From Eledone cirrhosa (lineage: Eukaryota): DNA of 64,000 nucleotides. Below the pieces are notes generated by a model. It was not told the DNA's origin, did not search any database, and saw only the letters and a program-made list of their open reading frames with translations. The stretch is taken from assembly GCA_964016885.1 (NCBI GenBank), contig OZ024741.1:69998001-70062000 (forward strand), written 5' to 3'. The translations under genes were made by a program, and so were the position numbers. Below, piece by piece: positions 12,066 to 60,840 of this stretch (its first letter is position 1; every line of letters begins with the position of its first letter).

Positions 12066-12992
12066 CTTTAAATGACCACTTTTCTAAACTCTTATCATTT
12101 TTGCTATTTCTGTCGCTAATGAGTAACATTAGAACAGAAAGTGAAAACATTTTTTCCAAAGTTTTTACGATAAAGGATATTTTGGGGGTAGAAATTCATT
12201 ACTCGTGCCTAAGTATATAAGTTAAAAAATATAAAATAAAAGCATAAATGTATACAAGTTAAAACGTTTGTTGCAATCGTTCTTAATCTTTTAATGCTCA
12301 TGCCACTCTTATGAAGAACAAAAATTGGCGCGATAATGCTTAATAAATTAAATTTATTTTTTATTTATTTAAAAACATAAATAAAAAAGCATTAGAAACT
12401 TGAAACTTTATGATTTCATTTTCTGATTCTGTGCCAAACTCTGTTAACAGACTTATGGAAAACTGGAAGTAAAAATGATTCCGCTATAATGTGTGGTTTC
12501 CTTCCAATAGTTTTTGATACACGGTAAAAAAATGTTATTGGAGCTTCCTTCTCTCTTTGTTGTCTTTTGCTTTTAAACTCATGTTTATCTTGAATTCTGG
12601 CTTGTAACGTTGAAAAAAGGATGCCTAGAAATAGAATATTTTTATTTTATTTGAAATTTCTTCAGCGTGAACAGAATGGGCCTTCGTCAGTTTTGGCCAA
12701 GAGTGTTCTAGTTTTACGAATCTACGGAACTGCCTGCTCAAGAAATTAATGTGCATACGGTTGGCCGAGTATTTCACGTTCATATATATGAGTCCCGAGT
12801 TCAAGCGAGAGTTACCACAGTTTGTAAGGTAGTCAATACATTAGTAGAGAGTAAACATCAAGTTTAATATAGTCTATGGGACTAGAATTGTTTCAATCAA
12901 AAGAAATAATCAGGAAAGCCCTTTCCAGATGATTTCTTTTGAAGAAAATACTTCTAGTCTTAAATTAGACTATATGCATGTACATACATACA

Positions 12993-13026
<34 letters not shown>

Positions 13027-13069
13027 CATACATATATACATACATACATACATACATACATACATACAT

Positions 13070-15494
13070 CGGAGGTATCTTACTGACCTCTACCAACAAG
13101 TTCTTAAGGGAGATACACTTATACCAGAATGGTTGACATTAGCACAAACGTTACTGGTCCCCAAGAACAAAGACACCCACTTGGCAAAAAACTACCGACC
13201 CATTGCATGCCAGAACCTGATGTATAAGATGTATACAACCTGCCTGAACCTATTCCTCCAAGATCACTGTGAAAATAATAACATCATCACAGATGAACAA
13301 GCAGCTGGAAAGAAAAGGGTTTGGGGATGTCGGAGGTGCGACAACTTAGGAGGAATATGACTACAGTCTGGCTGGACTACAAAAAAGCTTTTGATTCTGT
13401 TCCCCACTCTTGGATGATAGAGGCCCTCCAACTTGCTAAAGTCCCAGACATTATTGTCAGAGCCATAGAGAGGCTGTCTTCTTCTTGGACTACTATCCTA
13501 AGGTTAAAGACAGAGAGGGAGGACTCTATTTTCACTGATAAAATAAAATATTGCAGGGGTATATTTCAGGGGGACAGTCTCTCTGTGATATTGTTCATCT
13601 TGTCATTAAACCCCTTGTCCTTTCTGCTCAAGAAATGTGAGGGATACATCATTGGCTCACAGGAGGACAGAAATACGAACCTAACCCATAACTTCTTTGT
13701 GGACGGTCTGAAACTCTATGCCAAGAACATGGATGGAATGAAGAAAAATCTTGACCTGGTTACAACGTTCTCAAAGGATATAGGAATGGAGTTTGGCCAA
13801 GATAAATGCTCATACATGACTGTAAAGCGGGGAAAAACAACAACCCAATCTAGCAACATTGTCATCAATGGTCTAACTGTTTCACCAATATCTGATGAGG
13901 ACTGCGACAGATACCTGGGGATAGATGAGAACATATCCTATAATGGTATCTGTAATAAAGAACGCGTAACCAGGGAATACTACACCTGATTAAGAACGAT
14001 CTGGTCATCGGAACTCTCTGCGAAAACAAAATAGTGGCTCACAATGTGTTTGCTGTGCCTGTCCTAACACCAACGTTTGGAATACTCAATTGGACGATAG
14101 ACGAAATCCGAGCAGTTGATGTTGGAACTCGAAAAATACTGAACAACACCGGAAACTTCCACATCAACAGTGACATAGACCGCCTTTACTTGAAACGTAA
14201 GCAGGGAGGTAGAGGCCTAACATCAGTCCAGACAACATTTGAATGTCGCATCATATCTCTCCGACAACATCTACGAACCTCGAAGCGTAGGAACCCGTTT
14301 CTCGAGCAAGTCTATCTGCATGAAACAGATAAGATCATCAGAGTTGGGAAGGAACTCCTTGAGAGATATTCCCTGTGTGATAATCAAAAACTCACACCCA
14401 GGGATGCCGCTCAGCAGTATCGCAGTGAATCCATGGATGAAAAACTGCATGCCTATCAGCAAAAAATCATGCATGGATATGTTGTCAGGAAGCTCCAGAG
14501 TGAGAGTAATATAAATAAGGAAAGTAGTTTATCTTGGACCAACAACCGCTATATTGGCTCCCACTTTGAAGGATACGCTTTTGCAATCCAAGAACAGTAG
14601 ATTAGCACGAAATACCTGATTCACAAAAGAGATAGGGATGCAGGCACAACACCTAGATGTGATAACAAGTGCAGACTCTGCAGAACTAACATCGAGGATA
14701 TCACCCATGTCATCAGCAGCTGCCCAAAGATGTCATCGCGGTACTATCTACCTATGAGGCATGATGTAGTGGCCAAAACACTGTACAATGCAGTTCGTAA
14801 AAAAGATAGCCCCGATAATAAACACATTAAAAGCTACAACAATGTGGAAGACATCCATGTACATAATATGAAAGAGTACTAGTGGAATGTTCCAGTAAAA
14901 ACCCCAATAAATGCAGGCATAACAGATCAGATATTATGATATGGGACAGGGAGAAGAAAACATGCACAGTAGTGGAAATTAGCTGCCCAGCAGATGCCAA
15001 TATAATATCAAAGATTAGTGAAAAGGAGAATATTTATGCAGAACTGATGAGAAATCTGCAGATACTCCACCCTGATTACACCTTCAGATTTATGCCTGTG
15101 ATTATTGGAGCACTGGGATATGTTAGTAACTGCCTCAATACAAATCTTGAGAAGCTAGGCTTCACAGGAACAGAAAGAACACAACTAGTTAGGAAATTAC
15201 AAGTACAATCCATTAATGGAACAGTAAAAATATGTAAAACATTCCAAAAATTTTGCATCTAATAACTGCATATACACATGTACAGATACAAAGCATATAC
15301 ACATGCACACATACAACTCAAAACATACACATCCACACATACAATAACATCCATATCTACACATGCATGCATGCAGACATACATACATATCTACCTAGTT
15401 GATGTGTAAATTCCAATGAGAGAGTCTTGTGTCTGTTAGAAACCGACTCTCTCTCTATTGGTAAAACTTTGTGAAATTATAAAACCAGAAGAAC
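13070..15494 (+). mobile_element. 5'-truncated R4/Dong-like non-LTR retrotransposon (RT, CCHC zinc knuckle, restriction-like endonuclease), inactivated
   Basis: NYRPIAC, WLDYKKAFDSVPH, GIFQGDSLS, FFVDGLKLYA (YxDD mutated), YLGI, CRLC..H..SSC, RHD, SDIMIWD..VVEISCP..KENIY; stops and frameshifts; (TACA)n on both sides. Confidence 0.88.
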
Positions 15495-33389: not shown

Positions 33390-35310
33390 TTATCACCACC
33401 ATCACCATAACTACCACCTTCACCACCACCACAATCACTATCACCATCATCATGATTAATGATTAACACTACTAATATCACCGTTACCATCACAATTATC
33501 ACCACCATCACCATCACCATCACCAATACAGCACTATTACCATCACTATCACCACCGTCACGACCAATACTATTAACATCACCGTTGTCATCATAATCAT
33601 CACCATCAACTGTATTATATACCACCATCACTACTACTACCACCACCACCATCACTACTACCACCACCACCACCATCACTACTACCATCACCACCGCCAT
33701 CTCCACCACCATCACCACCACCATCTCCACCACCATCACTACTACCATCACCACCACCATCACTACTACCATCACCACCACCATCTCCACCACCATCACC
33801 ACCACCATCTCCACCACCATCACTACTACCATCACCACCACCATCTCCACCACCATCACCACCACCATCTCCACCACCATCACTACTACCACCACCACCA
33901 CCATCACTACTACCATCACCACCGCCATCTCCACCACCATCACCACCACCATCTCCACCACCATCACTACTACCATCACCACCACCATCACTACTACCAT
34001 CACCACCACCATCACTACCACCATCACCACCACCATCTCCACCACCATCACCACCACCATCACTACTACCATCACCACCACCATCACTACTACCATCACC
34101 ACCACCATCACTACTACCATCACCACCACCATCACTACTACCATCACGACCACCATCACTACCACCATCACCACCACCATCACTACCACCATCACCACCA
34201 CCATCTCCACCACCATCACCACCACCATCACCACCACCATCTCCACCACCATCACTACTACCATCACCACCACCATCACTACTACCATCACCACCACCAT
34301 CACTACCACCATCACCACCGCCATCTCCACCACCATCACTACCACCATCTCCACCACCATCACTACTACCATCACCACCACCATCACTACTACCATCACC
34401 ACCACCATCACTACTACCATCACCACCACCATCACTACCACCATCACCACCACCATCTCCACCACCATCACTACTACCATCACCACCACCATCACTACTA
34501 CCATCACCACCACCATCACTACCACCATCACCACCACCATCTCCACCACCATCACTACTACCATCACCACCACCATCACTACTACTACCACCACCACCAT
34601 CTCCACCACCATCACTACTACCATCACTACCACCATCACCACCACCATCACCATCTCCACCACCATCACTACCACCATCACCACCACCATCTCCACCACC
34701 ATCACCACCACCATCACTACTACCACCACCACCACCATCTCCACCACCATCACTACTACCATTTCCACCACCATCTCCACCACCATCACTACTACCATCA
34801 CTATCACCATCTCCACCACCATCACTACCACCATCACCACCACCATCTCCACCACCATCACCACCACCATCTCCACCACCATCACCACAACCATCTCCAA
34901 CACCATCACTACTACTACCACCACAACCATCTCCAACACCATCACTACTACTACCACCACAACCATCTCCAACACCATCACTACTACTACCACCACAAAC
35001 ATCTCCACCACCATCACTACTACCACCACCACAACCATCTCCACCACCATCACTACTACCATCTCCACCACCATCACTACTACCATCTCCACCACCATCA
35101 CTACTACCATCACAACAACCATCTCCACCACCATCACCACTACCATCTCCACCACCATCACTACTACCATCTCCACCACCATCACTACTACCATCACAAC
35201 AACCATCTCCACCACCACCACCACTACCATCTCCACCACCATCACTACTACCATCTCCACCACCATCACTACTACCATCACAACAACCATCTCCACCACC
35301 ATCATTACCT
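33390..35310. repeat. Long degenerate (CAC/CAT/TAC)n trinucleotide array with a 12-bp higher-order period
   Basis: Units such as caccaccatctc and caccatcactac. Confidence 0.92.
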
Positions 35311-44035: not shown

Positions 44036-44126
<91 letters not shown>

Positions 44127-44279
44127 TGTAATAAACAACATAAGGCAATTATTCCATTTACCAGTGGTTTCTTAAAAGCAAAAGATTTTGCTTTCAATCA
44201 TCAGAATGAAAAAATCCTGGTCTATTTATTGATATTGGATTCTAATAGAATCCAATATCAATAAATAGACCAGGATTTT

Positions 44280-44336
44280 TTCATTCTGATGATTGAAAGC
44301 AAAGTTTTTGCTTTTAAGAAACCACTGGTAAATGGA
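44280..44336 (+). ncRNA. Type I hammerhead ribozyme (mirror copy on - at about 44153-44210)
   Basis: tcatt-CTGATGA-ttgaaagcaaa(gtt)tttgcttttaa-GAAA-ccactg-GTA^-aatgg. Confidence 0.88.
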
Positions 44337-44433
44337 ATAATTGCCTTATGTTGTTTATTACATAACTATTAAGCTCTGTTACCTACATAGAGCACTCTTT
44401 TTTCCTGGACTTTTCCGGCGGAATTACTTCATT

Positions 44434-44467
<34 letters not shown>

Positions 44468-45133
44468 CACATATGGTGGCTACCAACTCGTTTTCGAGTA
44501 CGGCCACTACTTTATATCCATGTAGGAGAACCCCTACCGATGCGCTGAACGAGTGTGACTTTTTAGTCCAGCCACCGACTTGAAAACTCTGGTACAAACA
44601 CTACACTTGTGACAATTATTGACACACAGTGCTGGGCCCATGGTACCATGTAACGACAAGTGCAGAGATATCTCCAGATATAAAGCAATGCCTGTGCCGT
44701 GAAGCTTTTATAGTGAGCAAAGGCACTGCATAAAGCCAGTCCCACTCTCTTCACCAAGATGATATTTACCAAAAAGAATAACAAGTCAACATCATTGGAT
44801 ACCATCAGGGTTGCAGGTGTTATATCAGAGTTTTCCTTCTCCTAGAATTCTGCCTTGACAAAGGCTAAGGGGTCATCTCTCCCGGTGATTTTGGATGGCC
44901 ATTGACTCTTAAGAGCTCCTTTGCCCTTTGACCTTTGACAGATTTTGTTTTTAGTCCTGCAGGGTGTCCAAAGTCACCCTCCTCACCAAGAAACCTTGGT
45001 GGGGTTGCCAGTTTTGTCGCCAACGACCCGACCATGAGACAGGTTGTACTGGGATACATGTTACCAGTAGCACCAACTGGTGACCTATACACATATATAT
45101 ATATACATACATATATATATGTGTGTGTGTGTG

Positions 45134-45190
<57 letters not shown>

Positions 45191-45202
<12 letters not shown>

Positions 45203-48200
45203 TATAGACATAGAATATTCGAAAATATTCTGTATGTTTATAATAAACATTTTGAAGACCTAATCGCTATAGAATAGAATACGTCACGTATTACAATTAG
45301 ATTCTCGATAAAAGCAAGGGAAGTAATCTACGCGTTTCATTCTTGTTAGAATTCATCAGGACTACATATCCAGTGCTTTTATCGAGAATGACACAGCTAG
45401 AGACTTATAGAATACTTAGCTGTGTACAGGAACTGGTTTGAAAGAGCGGTTGCCGGTCCGGCAGAAATTAGAAATTGGAATAAATGCTCTGAAATAGCGA
45501 TATATATATGAATATAGACATAGAATATTCGAAAATATTCTGTATGTTTATAATAAACATTTTGAAGACCTAATCGCTATAGAATAGAATACGTCACGTA
45601 TTACAATTAGATTCTCGATAAAAGCAAGGGAAGTAATCTACGCGTTTCATTCTTGTTAGAATTCATCAGGACTACATATCCAGTGCTTTTATCGAGAATG
45701 ACACAGCTAGAGACTTATAGAATACTTAGCTGTGTACAGGAACTGGTTTGAAAGAGCGGTTGCCGGTCCGGCAGAAATTAGAAATTGGAATAAATGCTCT
45801 GAAATAGCGATATATATATGAATATAGACATAGAATATTCGAAAATATTCTGTATGTTTATAATAAACATTTTGAAGACCTAATCGCTATAGAATAGAAT
45901 ACGTCACGTATTACAATTAGATTCTCGATAAAAGCAAGGGAAGTAATCTACGCGTTTCATTCTTGTTAGAATTCATCAGGACTACATATCCAGTGCTTTT
46001 ATCGAGAATGACACAGCTAGAGACTTATAGAATACTTAGCTGTGTACAGGAACTGGTTTGAAAGAGCGGTTGCCGGTCCGGCAGAAATTAGAAATTGGAA
46101 TAAATGCTCTGAAATAGCGATATATATATGAATATAGACATAGAATATTCGAAAATATTCTGTATGTTTATAATAAACATTTTGAAGACCTAATCGCTAT
46201 AGAATAGAATACGTCACGTATTACAATTAGATTCTCGATAAAAGCAAGGGAAGTAATCTACGCGTTTCATTCTTGTTAGAATTCATCAGGACTACATATC
46301 CAGTGCTTTTATCGAGAATGACACAGCTAGAGACTTATAGAATACTTAGCTGTGTACAGGAACTGGTTTGAAAGAGCGGTTGCCGGTCCGGCAGAAATTA
46401 GAAATTGGAATAAATGCTCTGAAATAGCGATATATATATGAATATAGACATAGAATATTCGAAAATATTCTGTATGTTTATAATAAACATTTTGAAGACC
46501 TAATCGCTATAGAATAGAATACGTCACGTATTACAATTAGATTCTCGATAAAAGCAAGGGAAGTAATCTACGCGTTTCATTCTTGTTAGAATTCATCAGG
46601 ACTACATATCCAGTGCTTTTATCGAGAATGACACAGCTAGAGACTTATAGAATACTTAGCTGTGTACAGGAACTGGTTTGAAAGAGCGGTTGCCGGTCCG
46701 GCAGAAATTAGAAATTGGAATAAATGCTCTGAAATAGCGATATATATATGAATATAGACATAGAATATTCGAAAATATTCTGTATGTTTATAATAAACAT
46801 TTTGAAGACCTAATCGCTATAGAATAGAATACGTCACGTATTACAATTAGATTCTCGATAAAAGCAAGGGAAGTAATCTACGCGTTTCATTCTTGTTAGA
46901 ATTCATCAGGACTACATATCCAGTGCTTTTATCGAGAATGACACAGCTAGAGACTTATAGAATACTTAGCTGTGTACAGGAACTGGTTTGAAAGAGCGGT
47001 TGCCGGTCCGGCAGAAATTAGAAATTGGAATAAATGCTCTGAAATAGCGATATATATATGAATATAGACATAGAATATTCGAAAATATTCTGTATGTTTA
47101 TAATAAACATTTTGAAGACCTAATCGCTATAGAATAGAATACGTCACGTATTACAATTAGATTCTCGATAAAAGCAAGGGAAGTAATCTACGCGTTTCAT
47201 TCTTGTTAGAATTCATCAGGACTACATATCCAGTGCTTTTATCGAGAATGACACAGCTAGAGACTTATAGAATACTTAGCTGTGTACAGGAACTGGTTTG
47301 AAAGAGCGGTTGCCGGTCCGGCAGAAATTAGAAATTGGAATAAATGCTCTGAAATAGCGATATATATATGAATATAGACATAGAATATTCGAAAATATTC
47401 TGTATGTTTATAATAAACATTTTGAAGACCTAATCGCTATAGAATAGAATACGTCACGTATTACAATTAGATTCTCGATAAAAGCAAGGGAAGTAATCTA
47501 CGCGTTTCATTCTTGTTAGAATTCATCAGGACTACATATCCAGTGCTTTTATCGAGAATGACACAGCTAGAGACTTATAGAATACTTAGCTGTGTACAGG
47601 AACTGGTTTGAAAGAGCGGTTGCCGGTCCGGCAGAAATTAGAAATTGGAATAAATGCTCTGAAATAGCGATATATATATGAATATAGACATAGAATATTC
47701 GAAAATATTCTGTATGTTTATAATAAACATTTTGAAGACCTCATCGCTATAGAATAGAATACGTCACGTATTACAATTAGATTCTCGATAAAAGCAAGGG
47801 AAGTAATCTACGCGTTTCATTCTTGTTAGAATTCATCAGGACTACATATCCAGTGCTTTTATCTATAGCGATTAGGTCTTCAAAATGTTTATTATAAACA
47901 TACAGAATATTTTCGAATATTCTATGTCTATATTCATATATATATCGCTATTTCAGAGCATTTATTCCAATTTCTAATTTCTGCCGGACCGGCAACCGCT
48001 CTTTCAAACCAGTTCCTGTACACAGCTAAGTATTCTATAAGTCTCTAGCTGTGTCATTCTCGATAAAAGCACTGGATATGTAGTCCTGATGAATTCTAAC
48101 AAGAATGAAACGCGTAGATTACTTCCCTTGCTTTTATCGAGAATCTAATTGTAATACGTGACGTATTCTATTCTATAGCGATTAGGTCTTCAAAATGTTT

Positions 48201-51200
48201 ATTATAAACATACAGAATATTTTCGAATATTCTATGTCTATATTCATATATATATCGCTATTTCAGAGCATTTATTCCAATTTCTAATTTCTGCCGGACC
48301 GGCAACCGCTCTTTCAAACCAGTTCCTGTACACAGCTAAGTATTCTATAAGTCTCTAGCTGTGTCATTCTCGATAAAAGCACTGGATATGTAGTCCTGAT
48401 GAATTCTAACAAGAATGAAACGCGTAGATTACTTCCCTTGCTTTTATCGAGAATCTAATTGTAATACGTGACGTATTCTATTCTATAGCGATTAGGTCTT
48501 CAAAATGTTTATTATAAACATACAGAATATTTTCGAATATTCTATGTCTATATTCATATATATATCGCTATTTCAGAGCATTTATTCCAATTTCTAATTT
48601 CTGCCGGACCGGCAACCGCTCTTTCAAACCAGTTCCTGTACACAGCTAAGTATTCTATAAGTCTCTAGCTGTGTCATTCTCGATAAAAGCACTGGATATG
48701 TAGTCCTGATGAATTCTAACAAGAATGAAACGCGTAGATTACTTCCCTTGCTTTTATCGAGAATCTAATTGTAATACGTGACGTATTCTATTCTATAGCG
48801 ATTAGGTCTTCAAAATGTTTATTATAAACATACAGAATATTTTCGAATATTCTATGTCTATATTCATATATATATCGCTATTTCAGAGCATTTATTCCAA
48901 TTTCTAATTTCTGCCGGACCGGCAACCGCTCTTTCAAACCAGTTCCTGTACACAGCTAAGTATTCTATAAGTCTCTAGCTGTGTCATTCTCGATAAAAGC
49001 ACTGGATATGTAGTCCTGATGAATTCTAACAAGAATGAAACGCGTAGATTACTTCCCTTGCTTTTATCGAGAATCTAATTGTAATACGTGACGTATTCTA
49101 TTCTATAGCGATTAGGTCTTCAAAATGTTTATTATAAACATACAGAATATTTTCGAATATTCTATGTCTATATTCATATATATATCGCTATTTCAGAGCA
49201 TTTATTCCAATTTCTAATTTCTGCCGGACCGGCAACCGCTCTTTCAAACCAGTTCCTGTACACAGCTAAGTATTCTATAAGTCTCTAGCTGTGTCATTCT
49301 CGATAAAAGCACTGGATATGTAGTCCTGATGAATTCTAACAAGAATGAAACGCGTAGATTACTTCCCTTGCTTTTATCGAGAATCTAATTGTAATACGTG
49401 ACGTATTCTATTCTATAGCGATTAGGTCTTCAAAATGTTTATTATAAACATACAGAATATTTTCGAATATTCTATGTCTATATTCATATATATATCGCTA
49501 TTTCAGAGCATTTATTCCAATTTCTAATTTCTGCCGGACCGGCAACCGCTCTTTCAAACCAGTTCCTGTACACAGCTAAGTATTCTATAAGTCTCTAGCT
49601 GTGTCATTCTCGATAAAAGCACTGGATATGTAGTCCTGATGAATTCTAACAAGAATGAAACGCGTAGATTACTTCCCTTGCTTTTATCGAGAATCTAATT
49701 GTAATACGTGACGTATTCTATTCTATAGCGATTAGGTCTTCAAAATGTTTATTATAAACATACAGAATATTTTCGAATATTCTATGTCTATATTCATATA
49801 TATATCGCTATTTCAGAGCATTTATTCCAATTTCTAATTTCTGCCGGACCGGCAACCGCTCTTTCAAACCAGTTCCTGTACACAGCTAAGTATTCTATAA
49901 GTCTCTAGCTGTGTCATTCTCGATAAAAGCACTGGATATGTAGTCCTGATGAATTCTAACAAGAATGAAACGCGTAGATTACTTCCCTTGCTTTTATCGA
50001 GAATCTAATTGTAATACGTGACGTATTCTATTCTATAGCGATTAGGTCTTCAAAATGTTTATTATAAACATACAGAATATTTTCGAATATTCTATGTCTA
50101 TATTCATATATATATCGCTATTTCAGAGCATTTATTCCAATTTCTAATTTCTGCCGGACCGGCAACCGCTCTTTCAAACCAGTTCCTGTACACAGCTAAG
50201 TATTCTATAAGTCTCTAGCTGTGTCATTCTCGATAAAAGCACTGGATATGTAGTCCTGATGAATTCTAACAAGAATGAAACGCGTAGATTACTTCCCTTG
50301 CTTTTATCGAGAATCTAATTGTAATACGTGACGTATTCTATTCTATAGCGATTAGGTCTTCAAAATGTTTATTATAAACATACAGAATATTTTCGAATAT
50401 TCTATGTCTATATTCATATATATATCGCTATTTCAGAGCATTTATTCCAATTTCTAATTTCTGCCGGACCGGCAACCGCTCTTTCAAACCAGTTCCTGTA
50501 CACAGCTAAGTATTCTATAAGTCTCTAGCTGTGTCATTCTCGATAAAAGCACTGGATATGTAGTCCTGATGAATTCTAACAAGAATGAAACGCGTAGATT
50601 ACTTCCCTTGCTTTTATCGAGAATCTAATTGTAATACGTGACGTATTCTATTCTATAGCGATTAGGTCTTCAAAATGTTTATTATAAACATACAGAATAT
50701 TTTCGAATATTCTATGTCTATATTCATATATATATCGCTATTTCAGAGCATTTATTCCAATTTCTAATTTCTGCCGGACCGGCAACCGCTCTTTCAAACC
50801 AGTTCCTGTACACAGCTAAGTATTCTATAAGTCTCTAGCTGTGTCATTCTCGATAAAAGCACTGGATATGTAGTCCTGATGAATTCTAACAAGAATGAAA
50901 CGCGTAGATTACTTCCCTTGCTTTTATCGAGAATCTAATTGTAATACGTGACGTATTCTATTCTATAGCGATTAGGTCTTCAAAATGTTTATTATAAACA
51001 TACAGAATATTTTCGAATATTCTATGTCTATATTCATATATATATCGCTATTTCAGAGCATTTATTCCAATTTCTAATTTCTGCCGGACCGGCAACCGCT
51101 CTTTCAAACCAGTTCCTGTACACAGCTAAGTATTCTATAAGTCTCTAGCTGTGTCATTCTCGATAAAAGCACTGGATATGTAGTCCTGATGAATTCTAAC

Positions 51201-51380
51201 AAGAATGAAACGCGTAGATTACTTCCCTTGCTTTTATCGAGAATCTAATTGTAATACGTGACGTATTCTATTCTATAGCGATTAGGTCTTCAAAATGTTT
51301 ATTATAAACATACAGAATATTTTCGAATATTCTATGTCTATATTCATATATATATCGCTATTTCAGAGCATTTATTCCAA
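45191..51380. mobile_element. Palindromic tandem array of a 310-bp hammerhead-bearing unit (non-LTR retrozyme-like), about 8.6 + 11.3 copies head-to-head
   Basis: Exact 310-bp period (aatatagaca at 45201, 45511 ... 47681). Orientation flips at about 47862, then attaggtctt recurs at 47871, 48181 ... 51281. One visible SNP (47722). (TA)n on both flanks. Confidence 0.92.
48056..48144 (+). ncRNA. Type I hammerhead ribozyme, representative copy (11 on + in the right arm, 9 on - in the left arm)
   Basis: gtagtc-CTGATGA-attct(aaca)agaat-GAAA-cgc-GTA^-gattac. Stem I is extended by a perfect 16-bp helix attctcgataaaagca/tgcttttatcgagaat. Predicted cleavage between 48116 and 48117. Confidence 0.92.
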
Positions 51381-51739
51381 TATATATATATATATATTTG
51401 TATACATATACATATACAGGTGTGTGTGTTACATTGGATAGATACTATTGGAGCCATATTGCTCAGTTTTAAGTGATCCCAAATATAACATCCTTCACAA
51501 AATTAAAAAAGAATTCAGTAGTAGGGCCCTAATCGGCTTTCCACTAGTTTTCTAATGGAGTGCCGACACGAACTGGCATCCTCTGTAGTTAATCTCTGGA
51601 GGATATCGCTGGACGTATCTCAGTCTGTTATCCCAGTTTTCAGAAAATGAATATCTTACTTGTAGAGAATTACCATCGTATTTTACTTACTACTCATATC
51701 ATTAAAGTATTTGAAAGGGTGGTGAGATCAAGAATAAAT

Positions 51740-52450
51740 AAATTCCTAAATCTCTTTTGACCACTTTGATGATATTTTAGATATTTTAGGAAAATACTTC
51801 ATCGCATATGTCAAGAACCTTGACGTCAGCAAGGTTTTCGGTAGAGACAACCACGGCATTCTATTGAAAGAAAAAATGTCAAAAAGTGTAGTCTGGAGAT
51901 AGCTGCTACAGTGGATTCAGAGTTTCTTGATAAACAGAACATATGTGATCGACGGAGTCTACTCGCCGAAAATTATTAGTGATGTCCTCAAGGGTATCGA
52001 GTTGGGTCAACGTATCTTCATTATTTATCGCTGGATTGGCAGTATCGGTAGAGGGTCGGACGCCATGCTTTGTAGCATAGAGTTACGGCCGTTTATGATC
52101 TGAGTTCAAATCCTGTCGAGGTTAACTTTGCCTTTCATCCTTACGGGGTCGATAAAATAAAGTACCAGTCACGCACTGGGATCGATTTAATCGACTTTAA
52201 TGATCCCCCAAAATTGCTGGCCTTGCGCCTATATAAGAAACCATTATTTATATAAATGAAATCACAAATATCATAAAACACAGTAAAAAACAAACAAACA
52301 AAAAAATTGCCGCAGAATCTAAACTTCAGAATGCCTTCGAAAGTATAGATTACCGCACAAAACTTCAGTTTGATCTAAGCGTTGTGATTCACCGGGCGTA
52401 AAATAAAACAAAATATGCTAAAATTTCTGTAAAATTTGAGTTCATCTACT
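51740..52450 (+). mobile_element. Old CR1/Jockey-like RT relic interrupted by a SINE
   Basis: Degenerate LD.SK.F..NHGILL, LLQWIQSFL.NRT, G.ELG..IFIIYINEI. Confidence 0.55.
52031..52241 (+). mobile_element. SINE copy with TSD cattatttat
   Basis: Duplication at 52019-52028 and 52242-52251. Confidence 0.85.
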
Positions 52451-57270: not shown

Positions 57271-57385
57271 TTTCACTCCGTCTCTGCACCAACCACTGGA
57301 TACCACATCTACGATGGGTAATCTGCATCGTTTACTAACCGGAATCACCAGTTTCACCCATTGGTAAACAACGTAACATAAATGG

Positions 57386-57464
<79 letters not shown>

Positions 57465-57496
57465 ATATATATATTTTATATATATTTTATATATAT

Positions 57497-60400
57497 TTAA
57501 TAATGCCCTAGCTAACTCAGGTTACTCTGGTAAAATACGTTATAATGAGAACAACATTAGAAAGTCTCCGTTTACCCATAATAATAATAATAACATAATA
57601 TCCCATAATATGGCCATGAATGGGAGTAGAAAGCATAAGAATCGTAGAAATCCCATAGGTGTATCCGAACCAATCCATAGGTTAAGCTACCGTAATCGTA
57701 ATAGTGAGTCTAATGGTACACTTTTCGGGATTAGTTCTAGGGAACAAGTTAGGCACTCTGATCGCTCACCCAGTGGTAATGTTTTTACTAATTCTAATAG
57801 TGTTGTTTCAACTGATCCTGGTATTAACCCTAATCCTATTGATATGATTCCAGATAACAGTAGATATACTAAAGGTAGAAACAGAAGGAGACTCAATAGG
57901 GTTTTGGCTGCTTCTAATAATGTTGTTTCAACTAGTCCTCGCAGTAACCTGATCCTATTAGTGGGATACTGGATAACGGTAGAGTTGGTAAGGATAGAAA
58001 TAGGAGGAGACTCAATACTTATTTTAACCCGCCTTATGATCATGAAGTATTAACTAACATCCCTAGGTCTTTCTTTTCTATCTTAGAGAAAAATTTCCCT
58101 CCTAATAAATACCATGGTATTTTTAATAAAAATGTAATTAAACTATCATTCTCTACCACCCCTAATATTAGTTCTCATTTAGCTAGCACTAACAATAGGA
58201 AAATTAGGGACAGCTACTCCTCTTTGCGTACTACTAGTTTTGATAGATCCATTAATGCCTTACCACCTGAGCAGACCTTATCTTATAATAACCCTTTTGG
58301 TGTCACACTTTTAAACTGTTGTTTTACTCTGGACGATAATGTTTAGATTTTTTTTTTTCCCCTATTTATGCATCACTCATTCAGCCGGTCAATAGCACCC
58401 GGAAGTGTAACTGTAGAGTAAGTATTAACTGCCCTTTAAATGGTCACTGCCTCTCTAGGAACATTGTTTATGCTTGTGAAGTTAAGACTAATTCTTCTAA
58501 TAGCACATATATAGGCTCCACATCTAATACTTTTAAAACTAGGTTAATTCTCATATCTCTAATTTTAAGCATGTTAAGTTTAAGAACTCTACTTCTTTAG
58601 CACACCATATCTGGGATCTTAAAGGGGCTGGTATGCCATATAGCCTTAATTGGTGTATAGTAGCACGCTCTAATAACCTATCAACACACACTAAGTTCTG
58701 TAATCTCTGTATCCTAGAGACCCACTCTATAATTTACTCTAGGGAAGTTTTGCTTAATAGAAAGTCTGAGATATTTTCTTCCTGCCCCCATGCCATTTCT
58801 AATTCTTTCTTCTATTATAGACCTAAAAGTTCTGGTAGTTTAAATCGTATCCATTAGCTGCTATATTTCCTTATCTTTTTTGTTTAGGTTCATTTTGATT
58901 ACCATCATCATTATTATTATTAGTTTTTTACAGCTTTTCGATTTTAGTTTCCATAGTCTTTTGGCTACCATACCATATCTATCTTCTTAAGCATTATTAT
59001 AGTTTCACTACTAACACCTTATGAGTTTATATCTTATTAAATACTTTGTTTGGAGTCTCATTCAACTAATGAACCTCCTCCTCTACACACTTAATATCCG
59101 CCCCTTCTATTATACTATATATAAATCTCACCTTTATGCTCCTTTTTATGATATTATATAATATATTGATTTTAATTTTATGCTCCTTCCTATCCTCCAT
59201 AACCTCTCTTCTTTCTGTTCCCATTGGTCTACCATAGTTCTATTTAGAGTTCTTTTATTTGATAACGTTATTCGACTGAACGGAGCATATTTTACTCTAT
59301 TCTTGATAATTTTATTGAGATATCTTAAACTTATACGATTTTGATGACTTAAACACTAGCCAATTTTGAAGTGACTAGATATGTATTTTAAATACTTTTA
59401 ATATTAATTAATTTAAAAAGGTTTTCTAGTCAACTCTCCGGTTTACATTTCTATCTTTTTTCTTTTACTTAACCGCTTGTGACACCTAAGTAAATATACT
59501 TGTTTTTGTTTTTCGATCTTCGGTTTATTTTATTTATTTTTTTACTACCACACGCTGTCTGTCTGATCATGTAATTTCATTAATATATGTCTGTGTATGT
59601 CAACCACGTAAATATGTATATTAAGCATTTCCTTACACTCTGTTTGCTATTTGATATTAACGTTGTTATATCATATCATTTTTATGTAATCGTATTATAC
59701 ATTTTAATATATGTCTGTTATTTGAGGTACTGTTCTGTTATATTTTGTAATATTTTGTGATATTTTGGTAATATTTATGCCAATGTAAAATGATTTGACC
59801 TCCGTGTATTTGTTACAATGGTATAGATATTTTTTCAACACAATTTAGTTCTATATGATTTTTTTCTTACCCTGTGTAAAACTTTATACTATTTGTTAAC
59901 CTTGAATTATATGTATGATGTAATTTTGTATATCTTTTGATGCCAATATATTATAATATTGTTATTATAATGTTATTATAATGTTTTTATATTGTTTATG
60001 CACACTGACAGGGAATTATATATTATATTTTATTTTTATTTTTATCTTTATTCTTATTTTTATCTTTATTATATTATACTGTAAACAATATATATATATA
60101 TATTTAAATACTTAATAAGTGTTAGTTTGTGTATATATATACATATATTAAGCTTTTGATTATCACCATCTATTATATTATATATTCTATATCGTACTGT
60201 AATTCTCGCATTATATTACCATTTGTGTTTCAAGTTTTTGCATTATACAATATTTGCAATGTGGGTTCAATATGTTAATCACTTCCTTGCTATTTGGTCT
60301 ATATCTATGTTTGTAACTGCTCACTCTTAATCTTAGCCGACTTTTCCTTGATATCTTTCCTAAGCTTTAATAGATGTATACTCCATATTCTTCTGAGTTT

Positions 60401-60840
60401 TAGGCTTGTATTGGGCGATAGTGCTTCTTGTAGCTTTACTTGCCCTGATGAGTCCTTAATAGGACGAAACATTGTTGGCTAATAAAGACTTTTGATGTAT
60501 TGAAGGCTTCTTTGGTTTATTTTTTATAATTCTTCGGCTCTGTTTAATTACATTGAACTATATCTTATACTATCAATTTGTCTCTGGATGTTTACTGAGG
60601 AGAGCGGGACATGATATTCCTACACTTATTTAACTCGAAACATATTTGGATCTTAAAGTCTAAACTTATCTACGGAACAGGTTTGATTTTGAAATTTAAA
60701 TGTGTATAAACATCACGGCCTTTTGGCAATACAGTTCGTCTCCGTTGATTTATTATTTTAAATCGATATGGACAAACTGTAGTATAATAATTAGTATACT
60801 TCAATCTGGCTAAATTTTTCTTTTGCAATATATATACAGA
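57497..60840 (+). mobile_element. 5'-truncated Penelope-like retroelement (linker, GIY-YIG endonuclease relic, pLTR with HHR)
   Basis: Frameshifted FNNALANSGY, YFNPPY, IFNKNVIKLSFS, CNCR..CPLNGHCL..NIVY..YIGST..FKTR, STSLAHHIWDLK, CNLCILE..LLNRKSE..SCPH. Bounded by (TA)n. Confidence 0.85.
60442..60479 (+). ncRNA. Minimal hammerhead ribozyme in a Penelope pLTR
   Basis: gcc-CTGATGA-gtcct(taat)aggac-GAAA-catt-GTT^-ggc followed by AATAAA, downstream of a GIY-YIG relic. Confidence 0.8.

Follow-up and report, generated by a model that had tools for sequence, protein, structure and literature searches.

How can a short repeat come to lie in a genome as two long tandem blocks of opposite orientation, with both outer ends running into simple (TA)n sequence? 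This question is raised by an array of Eledone cirrhosa found in the window, namely the whole stretch of 64,000 nucleotides analysed here (GCA_964016885.1, contig OZ024741.1, positions 69,998,001 to 70,062,000). In this array, a 310-bp unit of 34% GC is repeated in tandem in two opposite-strand blocks that overlap by the dinucleotide TC, in agreement with TRF (Table 1; unit positions are numbered from 48172). A sequence-only reading of the window had described one giant head-to-head palindrome and explained it by twin-primed reverse transcription on a circular RNA. Its observation of the array is confirmed, and its interpretation is partly supported by the other copies in the genome.

Organization of the array

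Compared with the reverse-complemented unit, the left arm shows a single mismatch (at 47742), and it terminates within the unit's own ATATATATAT tract, running into the (TA)n of the flank, as had been claimed. The right arm ends at unit position 110 with ...CCAAT, followed by (AT)n. Of the 20 hammerhead cores, nine are on the minus and 11 on the plus strand, and the ribozyme-sense 3' ends therefore face outward into (TA)n. The proposed orientation switch between different registers of the unit was also found at 47862-47863, and the arm lengths agree with the claimed laps of about 9 and 11, exact unit counts per arm being open to misassembly. Of the giant palindrome, the two opposite arms hold good; it is imperfect, as the arms are unequal, the centre is unmirrored over about 108 nt and the ends differ. 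Beyond the (TA)n, the left and right flanks are not mirror images. The point at which the left arm stops falls within the 16-bp inverted repeat of the unit.

Table 1. Coordinates of the array and its parts in the window
Feature	Position	Strand	Details
Left (TA)n-rich target flank	45093..45189		
Left arm, antisense	45190..47863	-	2,674 bp, 8.63 units; 3' end is site A
Site A end (10-nt AU tract of the unit)	45190..45199	-	unit positions 75-84
Unmirrored palindrome centre	47754..47861		about 108 nt
Head-to-head junction	47862..47863		TC microhomology; unit position 201 (left) meets position 1 (right)
Right arm, sense	47862..51381	+	3,520 bp, 11.35 exact units; 3' end is site B
Predicted hairpin around the ribozyme	48056..48144	+	16-bp inverted repeat, -32.4 kcal/mol, z -6.8
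Minimal type I hammerhead (1 example of 20)	48071..48136	+	CUGAUGA at 48086, GAAAC
One-sided tail, unit 85-110	51356..51381	+	at the B end; missing from the A end
Right (TA)n target flank	51382..51397		

The hammerhead has a stem II and a palindromic stem III (ACGCGU) with a predicted cut after 48116, and the predicted hairpin that encloses it recurs in each full unit. Rfam gave a match to Hammerhead_HH9 (E=0.0022, 23 bits) under the gathering score of 52, and zero matches at gathering level in the 64-kb window. The invariant core was free of locus-fixed variants in 92 loci, 40 of which were not selected by the ribozyme. Within 45190-51381 there was no stop-to-stop frame of at least 120 aa. 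No ORF combining reverse transcriptase (RT) and GIY-YIG was present, so that the array itself is not an autonomous Penelope-like element (PLE), and no LTR-like layout was seen. With a hammerhead in each unit, a unit length in the range of 150-450 bp, GC below 50% and no ORF, the array can be classed by its sequence as a putative non-autonomous non-LTR retrozyme. The non-LTR retrozymes described by Cervera and de la Pena 2020 (PMC7229834) and by Li et al. (bioRxiv 10.64898/2026.07.22.740005), as far as the available parts of these sources go, are likewise non-coding tandem units of 150-450 bp and low GC with a type I hammerhead in each. It has been proposed there that circRNAs serve as templates for tandem cDNA and that PLEs mobilise the units, and the PLE mobilisation of animal retrozymes has, in the sources available in part, so far been based on shared ribozymes, co-occurrence and similarity to pLTRs. 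The words 'inverted' and 'orientation' have no occurrence in the main text of PMC7229834 in its available form, and the bioRxiv text, available through its Discussion, describes neither head-to-head arrays nor fixed start sites nor junction features. The 310-bp family differs from described non-LTR retrozymes in that the majority of its insertions are two-armed.

In public sequencing runs, none of the contigs listed for 47754-48060 (runs X1, X2, X18 and X4, possibly from other individuals) bridged the junction, and the joints among them were ordinary tandem continuation. Run X4 is coded as another organism; one of its contigs, 340 nt in length, was an exact cyclic copy of unit 48172-48481, and a second run from the same sample contained zero words of the unit. 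Cross-contamination by a very high-copy repeat accounts for this copy with the same likelihood as real sharing. The public runs listed with the 310-bp unit included no RNA run and have no bearing on expression.

One A end and one B end per insertion

Genome-wide counts were based on exact sequence patterns of the unit, its ends and its junction. A 32-nt ribozyme pattern had 3,923 exact matches. On the forward strand, 798 ends of one class (A) and 770 of another (B) were counted, each site once, which gives about 1,500-1,600 insertions. The 310-bp retrozyme family thus comprises about 1,500 insertions, and it is young and nearly unmutated. The outward polarity predicted for other copies was recovered with a junction-spanning pattern (gap 0-310), in which 146 head-to-head joins were outward and 1 was inward.

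The outer ends fall in two windows of the unit, A at about 72-84 and B at 110-117, with a single outlier at 99. The classes were defined after inspection of the first locus set, and each of the 78 resolved two-armed loci carried one A end and one B end (78/78). This was true of the 44/44 resolved loci picked by ribozyme or junction regardless of their ends as well as of the 34/34 picked by one end. The two-armed loci numbered 85; in the other 7 an end fell in N or beyond the sequence that had been retrieved. This pairing in two-armed insertions is the main rule of the family, and it was absent from the sequence-only reading. In a census of contig C1 (1-54.2 Mb), 24 of 29 end-defined loci were two-armed, 4 were one-armed (A) and 1 was cut by an N gap; extra loci selected by their B end were two-armed in 15/15. 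A locus with a B arm of about 11 nt (L085) was counted solely in the census.

The sole inward junction belongs to a complex locus, L107, in which four parts follow one another (B-minus, plus, minus and plus-A). It contains an extra switch at the AU tract, and its outer ends are still B and A. This locus was excluded from the statistics on variants, on junctions and ends and on target flanks.

The A ends lie within the tract complementary to (TA)n. Measured from where the AU tract stops, the B ends are 26-33 nt further on, and their distance from the earliest A ends is as much as about 45 nt; they have only 1-2 bases in common with (TA)n. The motif (TA)4 was present within 30 nt of both ends in 75/78 loci. 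The suggestion of A/T-rich priming points is therefore upheld for the target, and it has to be narrowed for the unit from any A/T-rich place to two fixed windows. A target duplication could be read clearly at one off-target locus alone (L037, 11-12 bp), the remaining loci sitting in microsatellites, and this duplication fits staggered nicks. Arm length ranged from 0.2 to 27 units. The A arm was longer than the B arm in 37/78 loci and the B arm was longer in the remainder, the two lengths being weakly correlated (rho 0.25).

An older sister retrozyme family (318-320 bp unit; L166:837-1250 and L168-L192) shows about 5% divergence among copies. It is 75% identical to the 310-bp unit over unit 4-157, and the region around A and B is the best-conserved part between the two families. 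Orientation was outward in 20/20 two-armed loci of the sister family, and ends homologous to A and B were paired in 16/17 resolved loci, the exception being L173 with two A ends. Among its 25 loci, 5 appeared one-armed and 3 had an unresolved end; the arms were shorter, the longest measuring about 3.4 units.

Junctions between the arms

Distinct junctions were found in 83/85 two-armed loci, the two repeats involving the 16-nt inverted repeat in one case and, in the other, a pair of loci with different haplotypes. The 5' ends of junctions were uniform around the unit (chi-square p=0.39, 44 loci not chosen by junction), and the random junction register that had been expected is in agreement with both results. 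The arm-to-arm register offsets were evenly spread as well, with 5/85 within 6 nt vs 3.6 expected. Formation of junctions at the unit's 16-bp inverted repeat, which was considered as a candidate, fits just 2/85.

Random joins give microhomology of at least 2 nt in 18.5% of cases, and the lone TC overlap of the window is therefore within chance. Across loci, 42/68 insert-free junctions reached this length (p=4e-15); microhomology, proposed as a signature from the window junction, holds as an excess that shows across loci only. Inserts were present at 17 junctions, and in 8 that were examined the longest unit-derived piece measured 7-41 nt. Inserts of this kind resemble the products of polymerase-theta end joining. 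In one locus, a foreign, GC-richer sequence of 272 nt lies at the head-to-head junction (L102:1499-1770), unmatched among the other loci compared.

The arms read through the predicted ribozyme cut site unchanged, and junction ends fell at it in 1/170 vs 3.8 expected. No clustering of junctions at the cut site or at the AU tract was observed in the 85 two-armed loci.

One template sequence in both arms

Unit positions 73-84 were omitted from variant counts. Substitutions defined 34 haplotypes in 92 loci, and two random loci have an identical haplotype 12% of the time. All locus-level variants covered by both arms were fixed in both (118/118), and 13 variants private to one locus were nonetheless fixed throughout it. 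Single-unit differences amounted to 91 in 288,794 bases (0.03%). Two left arms, those of L046 and L112, contain units of two haplotypes, which suggests a template switch between RNA molecules, so that more than one template can contribute.

The locus-fixed variants lean towards A>G in RNA sense, with 10 sites vs 3 for T>C (p=0.02, no multiple-test correction), a modest and one-sided excess. They are also found repeatedly on different backgrounds, and the single-unit differences (6 vs 17) show no such pattern. The A>G sites were paired in 6/10 vs 63% of other A's, hence no excess in stems. The lean weakly hints at A-to-I editing of the RNA template, and recombination between templates could be an alternative source of the recurrence.

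Probable priming of both strands on one RNA

From these data, it is probable that the RT/endonuclease of a PLE primes both nicked (TA)n strands at two fixed sites of one circular RNA monomer, and that the cDNAs are joined by microhomology. We infer that the template would be circular rather than an uncleaved multimer, with the two primers sitting on one molecule. The transcript of an array would self-cleave and the monomer would be circularised. A probably dimeric PLE protein would bind the region that holds sites A and B, a step proposed on the grounds that this region is the best conserved with the sister family. Staggered nicks in (TA)n would yield two 3' ends, of which one would pair with the AU tract (A) and the other would start 26-33 nt downstream with 1-2 matching bases (B). 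Each end would be extended around the circle with strand displacement over 0.2 to 27 laps, up to an arbitrary stop. To our knowledge, PLE RTs are without RNase H. Finally, microhomology-mediated end joining would link the two antisense cDNA ends, and each would serve as template for the second strand of the other. The outward polarity of 146:1 implies that the ribozyme-sense strand is the one copied from both primers, which is what a single-stranded RNA template would give.

The near-equal counts of A (798) and B (770) ends, the A+B rule, the census, the (TA)4 flanks, the L037 duplication, the junctions, the unchanged read-through of the cut site, the shared variants, the paired ends of the sister family and the both-strand extension from two start sites in vitro were all counted in favour of priming at two sites. 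Against it on a circle were counted that no autonomous PLE with the unit was found in 25 examined loci of one family, as well as the in vitro data in the available part of PMC11167929, the mixed arms of L046 and L112, the A/A ends of L173 and the rho of 0.25. As to the twin priming of the sequence-only reading, the polarity, the register, the microhomology and the one monomer sequence of both arms (118/118) sustain it, and its LINE-1 form has to be given up since A and B are paired in 78/78.

The main rival reading, in which A and B are primed in the same way but the template is a long donor-array transcript that stayed linear and uncleaved, is unlikely. Polarity, A+B rule and junctions are accounted for equally well by such a template, and the units of donor arrays hardly differ (91 single-unit differences in 288,794 bases). 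Moreover, ribozyme cleavage was unnecessary in vitro according to the available part of PMC11167929, with unprocessed RNA as the main substrate and start sites that were the same for both strands; this favours a linear multimer and leaves the strict A+B pairing unpredicted. However, copies of a linear multimer could only shorten across generations, yet arms reach 27 units. The 13 private variants fixed through whole loci require a monomer bottleneck, and no inherited donor junctions were seen (83/85 distinct).

A short head-to-head insertion of PLE type, with arms lengthened later by unequal crossover or slippage, is very improbable. DNA-level lengthening has been proposed as a route to retrozyme arrays (bioRxiv 10.64898/2026.07.22.740005, in its available part), and homogeneous units would also be expected from it. 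On the contrary, the arrays are long though almost mutation-free (0.03%), and the older sister family is the shorter-armed one. More than one unit per arm is needed before expansion can begin, and an arm-specific variant fixed through a whole arm was found in none of the 92 loci.

Still less credible is a single primer whose cDNA folds back, self-primes at palindromes and copies itself into the inverted arm. The window's left arm does stop in the 16-bp inverted repeat, 2/85 junctions use this repeat exactly, and at L107, the lone locus with an inward join, orientation switches in a complex manner at the AU tract. Nevertheless, small register offsets would be predicted and an even spread was observed (5/85 within 6 nt, 3.6 expected). 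The copied arm should also never be longer than its template, yet the A arm is the longer one in 37/78 loci and the B arm in the rest, so neither arm is a fold-back copy of the other.

A long-read fold-back chimera or an assembly artefact can practically be set aside: palindromes are a known artefact of long reads, yet in a fold-back read one end and its flank would reappear in mirror image, whereas ends (A vs B), flanks and registers differ here, and the polarity of 146:1, the one target duplication and the same design in diverged older families also speak against it.

Relation to Penelope-like elements and LINE-1

In LINE-1 twin priming, the poly(A) is primed first and a variable internal site second. 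The 310-bp family resembles it in that both target ends would prime on RNA, in the outward 3' ends and in the junction microhomology. It differs in having no poly(A), internal and fixed sites A and B and a template repeated many times, and two arms are the rule here (24/29 loci) and not a minority outcome. Two fixed windows with one of each per insertion (78/78) therefore match the signature of two start sites and a tail known from PLEs and not that of LINE-1.

PLE insertions comprise an inverted 5'-truncated copy, often a tail at one end only, and (TA)n targets, and the mechanism by which PLEs form tandem and inverted structures is called undefined in the available part of PMC8557442. Antisense self-priming has been hypothesised for PLEs (PMC3846280, available in part). 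In the accessible portion of PMC11167929, a purified PLE protein, predicted to be dimeric, nicks and extends both strands, and two internal start sites bound the tail. On the basis of these three partly available sources, the 310-bp family and PLEs have in common the head-to-head 5'-truncated copy, a one-sided tail of about 30 nt (30-40 bp in PLEs), (TA)n targets and two internal start sites downstream of the hammerhead. Target duplications measure about 8-10 bp in PLEs, and the single readable case here measures 11-12 bp (L037). Unlike PLEs, the 310-bp array has no ORF, both arms consist of many exact laps of one small monomer and site A is complementary to the target, whereas the start sites in the accessible portion of PMC11167929 are without homology to the cut DNA. 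The terms 'circular', 'head-to-head' and 'microhomolog' have no occurrence in that portion, in which the two start sites are not tied to inversion. In the open-access literature, no description of head-to-head retrozyme arrays or of PLE twin priming was found, and an earlier description is possible. The head-to-head architecture is thus known for PLEs, and its combination with retrozymes and with priming at both sites is apparently unreported in that literature.

With about 1,500 insertions that have hardly mutated, the 310-nt unit offers a base-level record of the integration reaction: each strand starts at one of two fixed sites, both arms go back to one template sequence, and the joining points are arbitrary. 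For the 310-bp family, this record argues against the published self-priming hypothesis, and it links the two start sites seen in vitro to inversion in the genome. It also supplies a small defined RNA and a target with which PLE and retrozyme integration is directly testable, and suggests that kilobase palindromes and satellite-like arrays could form in one step. More tentatively, as an idea that we take seriously without leaning towards it, PLEs may normally integrate by way of a dimeric protein that obligatorily primes both strands at two sites of a single RNA circle. If so, this route would explain tandem copies by laps, the inverted pLTR by the second cDNA and the one-sided tail by the gap between start sites, as well as second-strand synthesis. 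In addition, hammerheads would gain a role in template making, and RNA edits would enter every unit of a genomic array.

Related and neighbouring families

A 484-aa PLE-like frame (L124) led to a large family with open 808-aa frames (L154, L162), which we take to be PLEs by their RT and GIY-YIG-like motifs. The PLE-like frame of this family had no match in Pfam. The copies in L154 and L162 have inverted and direct terminal repeats and adjoin (TA)n, and they showed no sequence link to the 310-bp unit. None of the 25 loci of one PLE family contained a PLE sharing the 310-bp unit, and the unit-like matches within them were nested sister retrozymes.

A second, unrelated head-to-head element lies beside (TA)n in the window (44123-44440), its ends being unequal, one short and the other extended by a tail of about 58 nt. 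A 25-mer of this element had 3,370 exact matches genome-wide. Short and tailed ends were paired in 19/20 fetched loci of its family, 19 loci having been selected for forming opposite-strand pairs and many of the listed matches of the family being unpaired; L127 was ambiguous, and L130 and L131 had a common flank.

At about 57380-58900, a broken remnant is presumably PLE-like, as judged by an NPPY-type motif and GIY-YIG-like fragments, and a hammerhead-like motif occurs at 60445. Other hammerhead-like motifs of the window (25229, 43835, 43973 and 56620), several of them just upstream of (TA)n, probably represent other PLE-related families. The window also contains broken RT fragments of a non-LTR retrotransposon in several frames (12848-15262), a presumed SINE-like sequence of octopod type (about 52050-52230) and a long minisatellite of (ACC/ATC) type with extreme GC skew (33477-35308).
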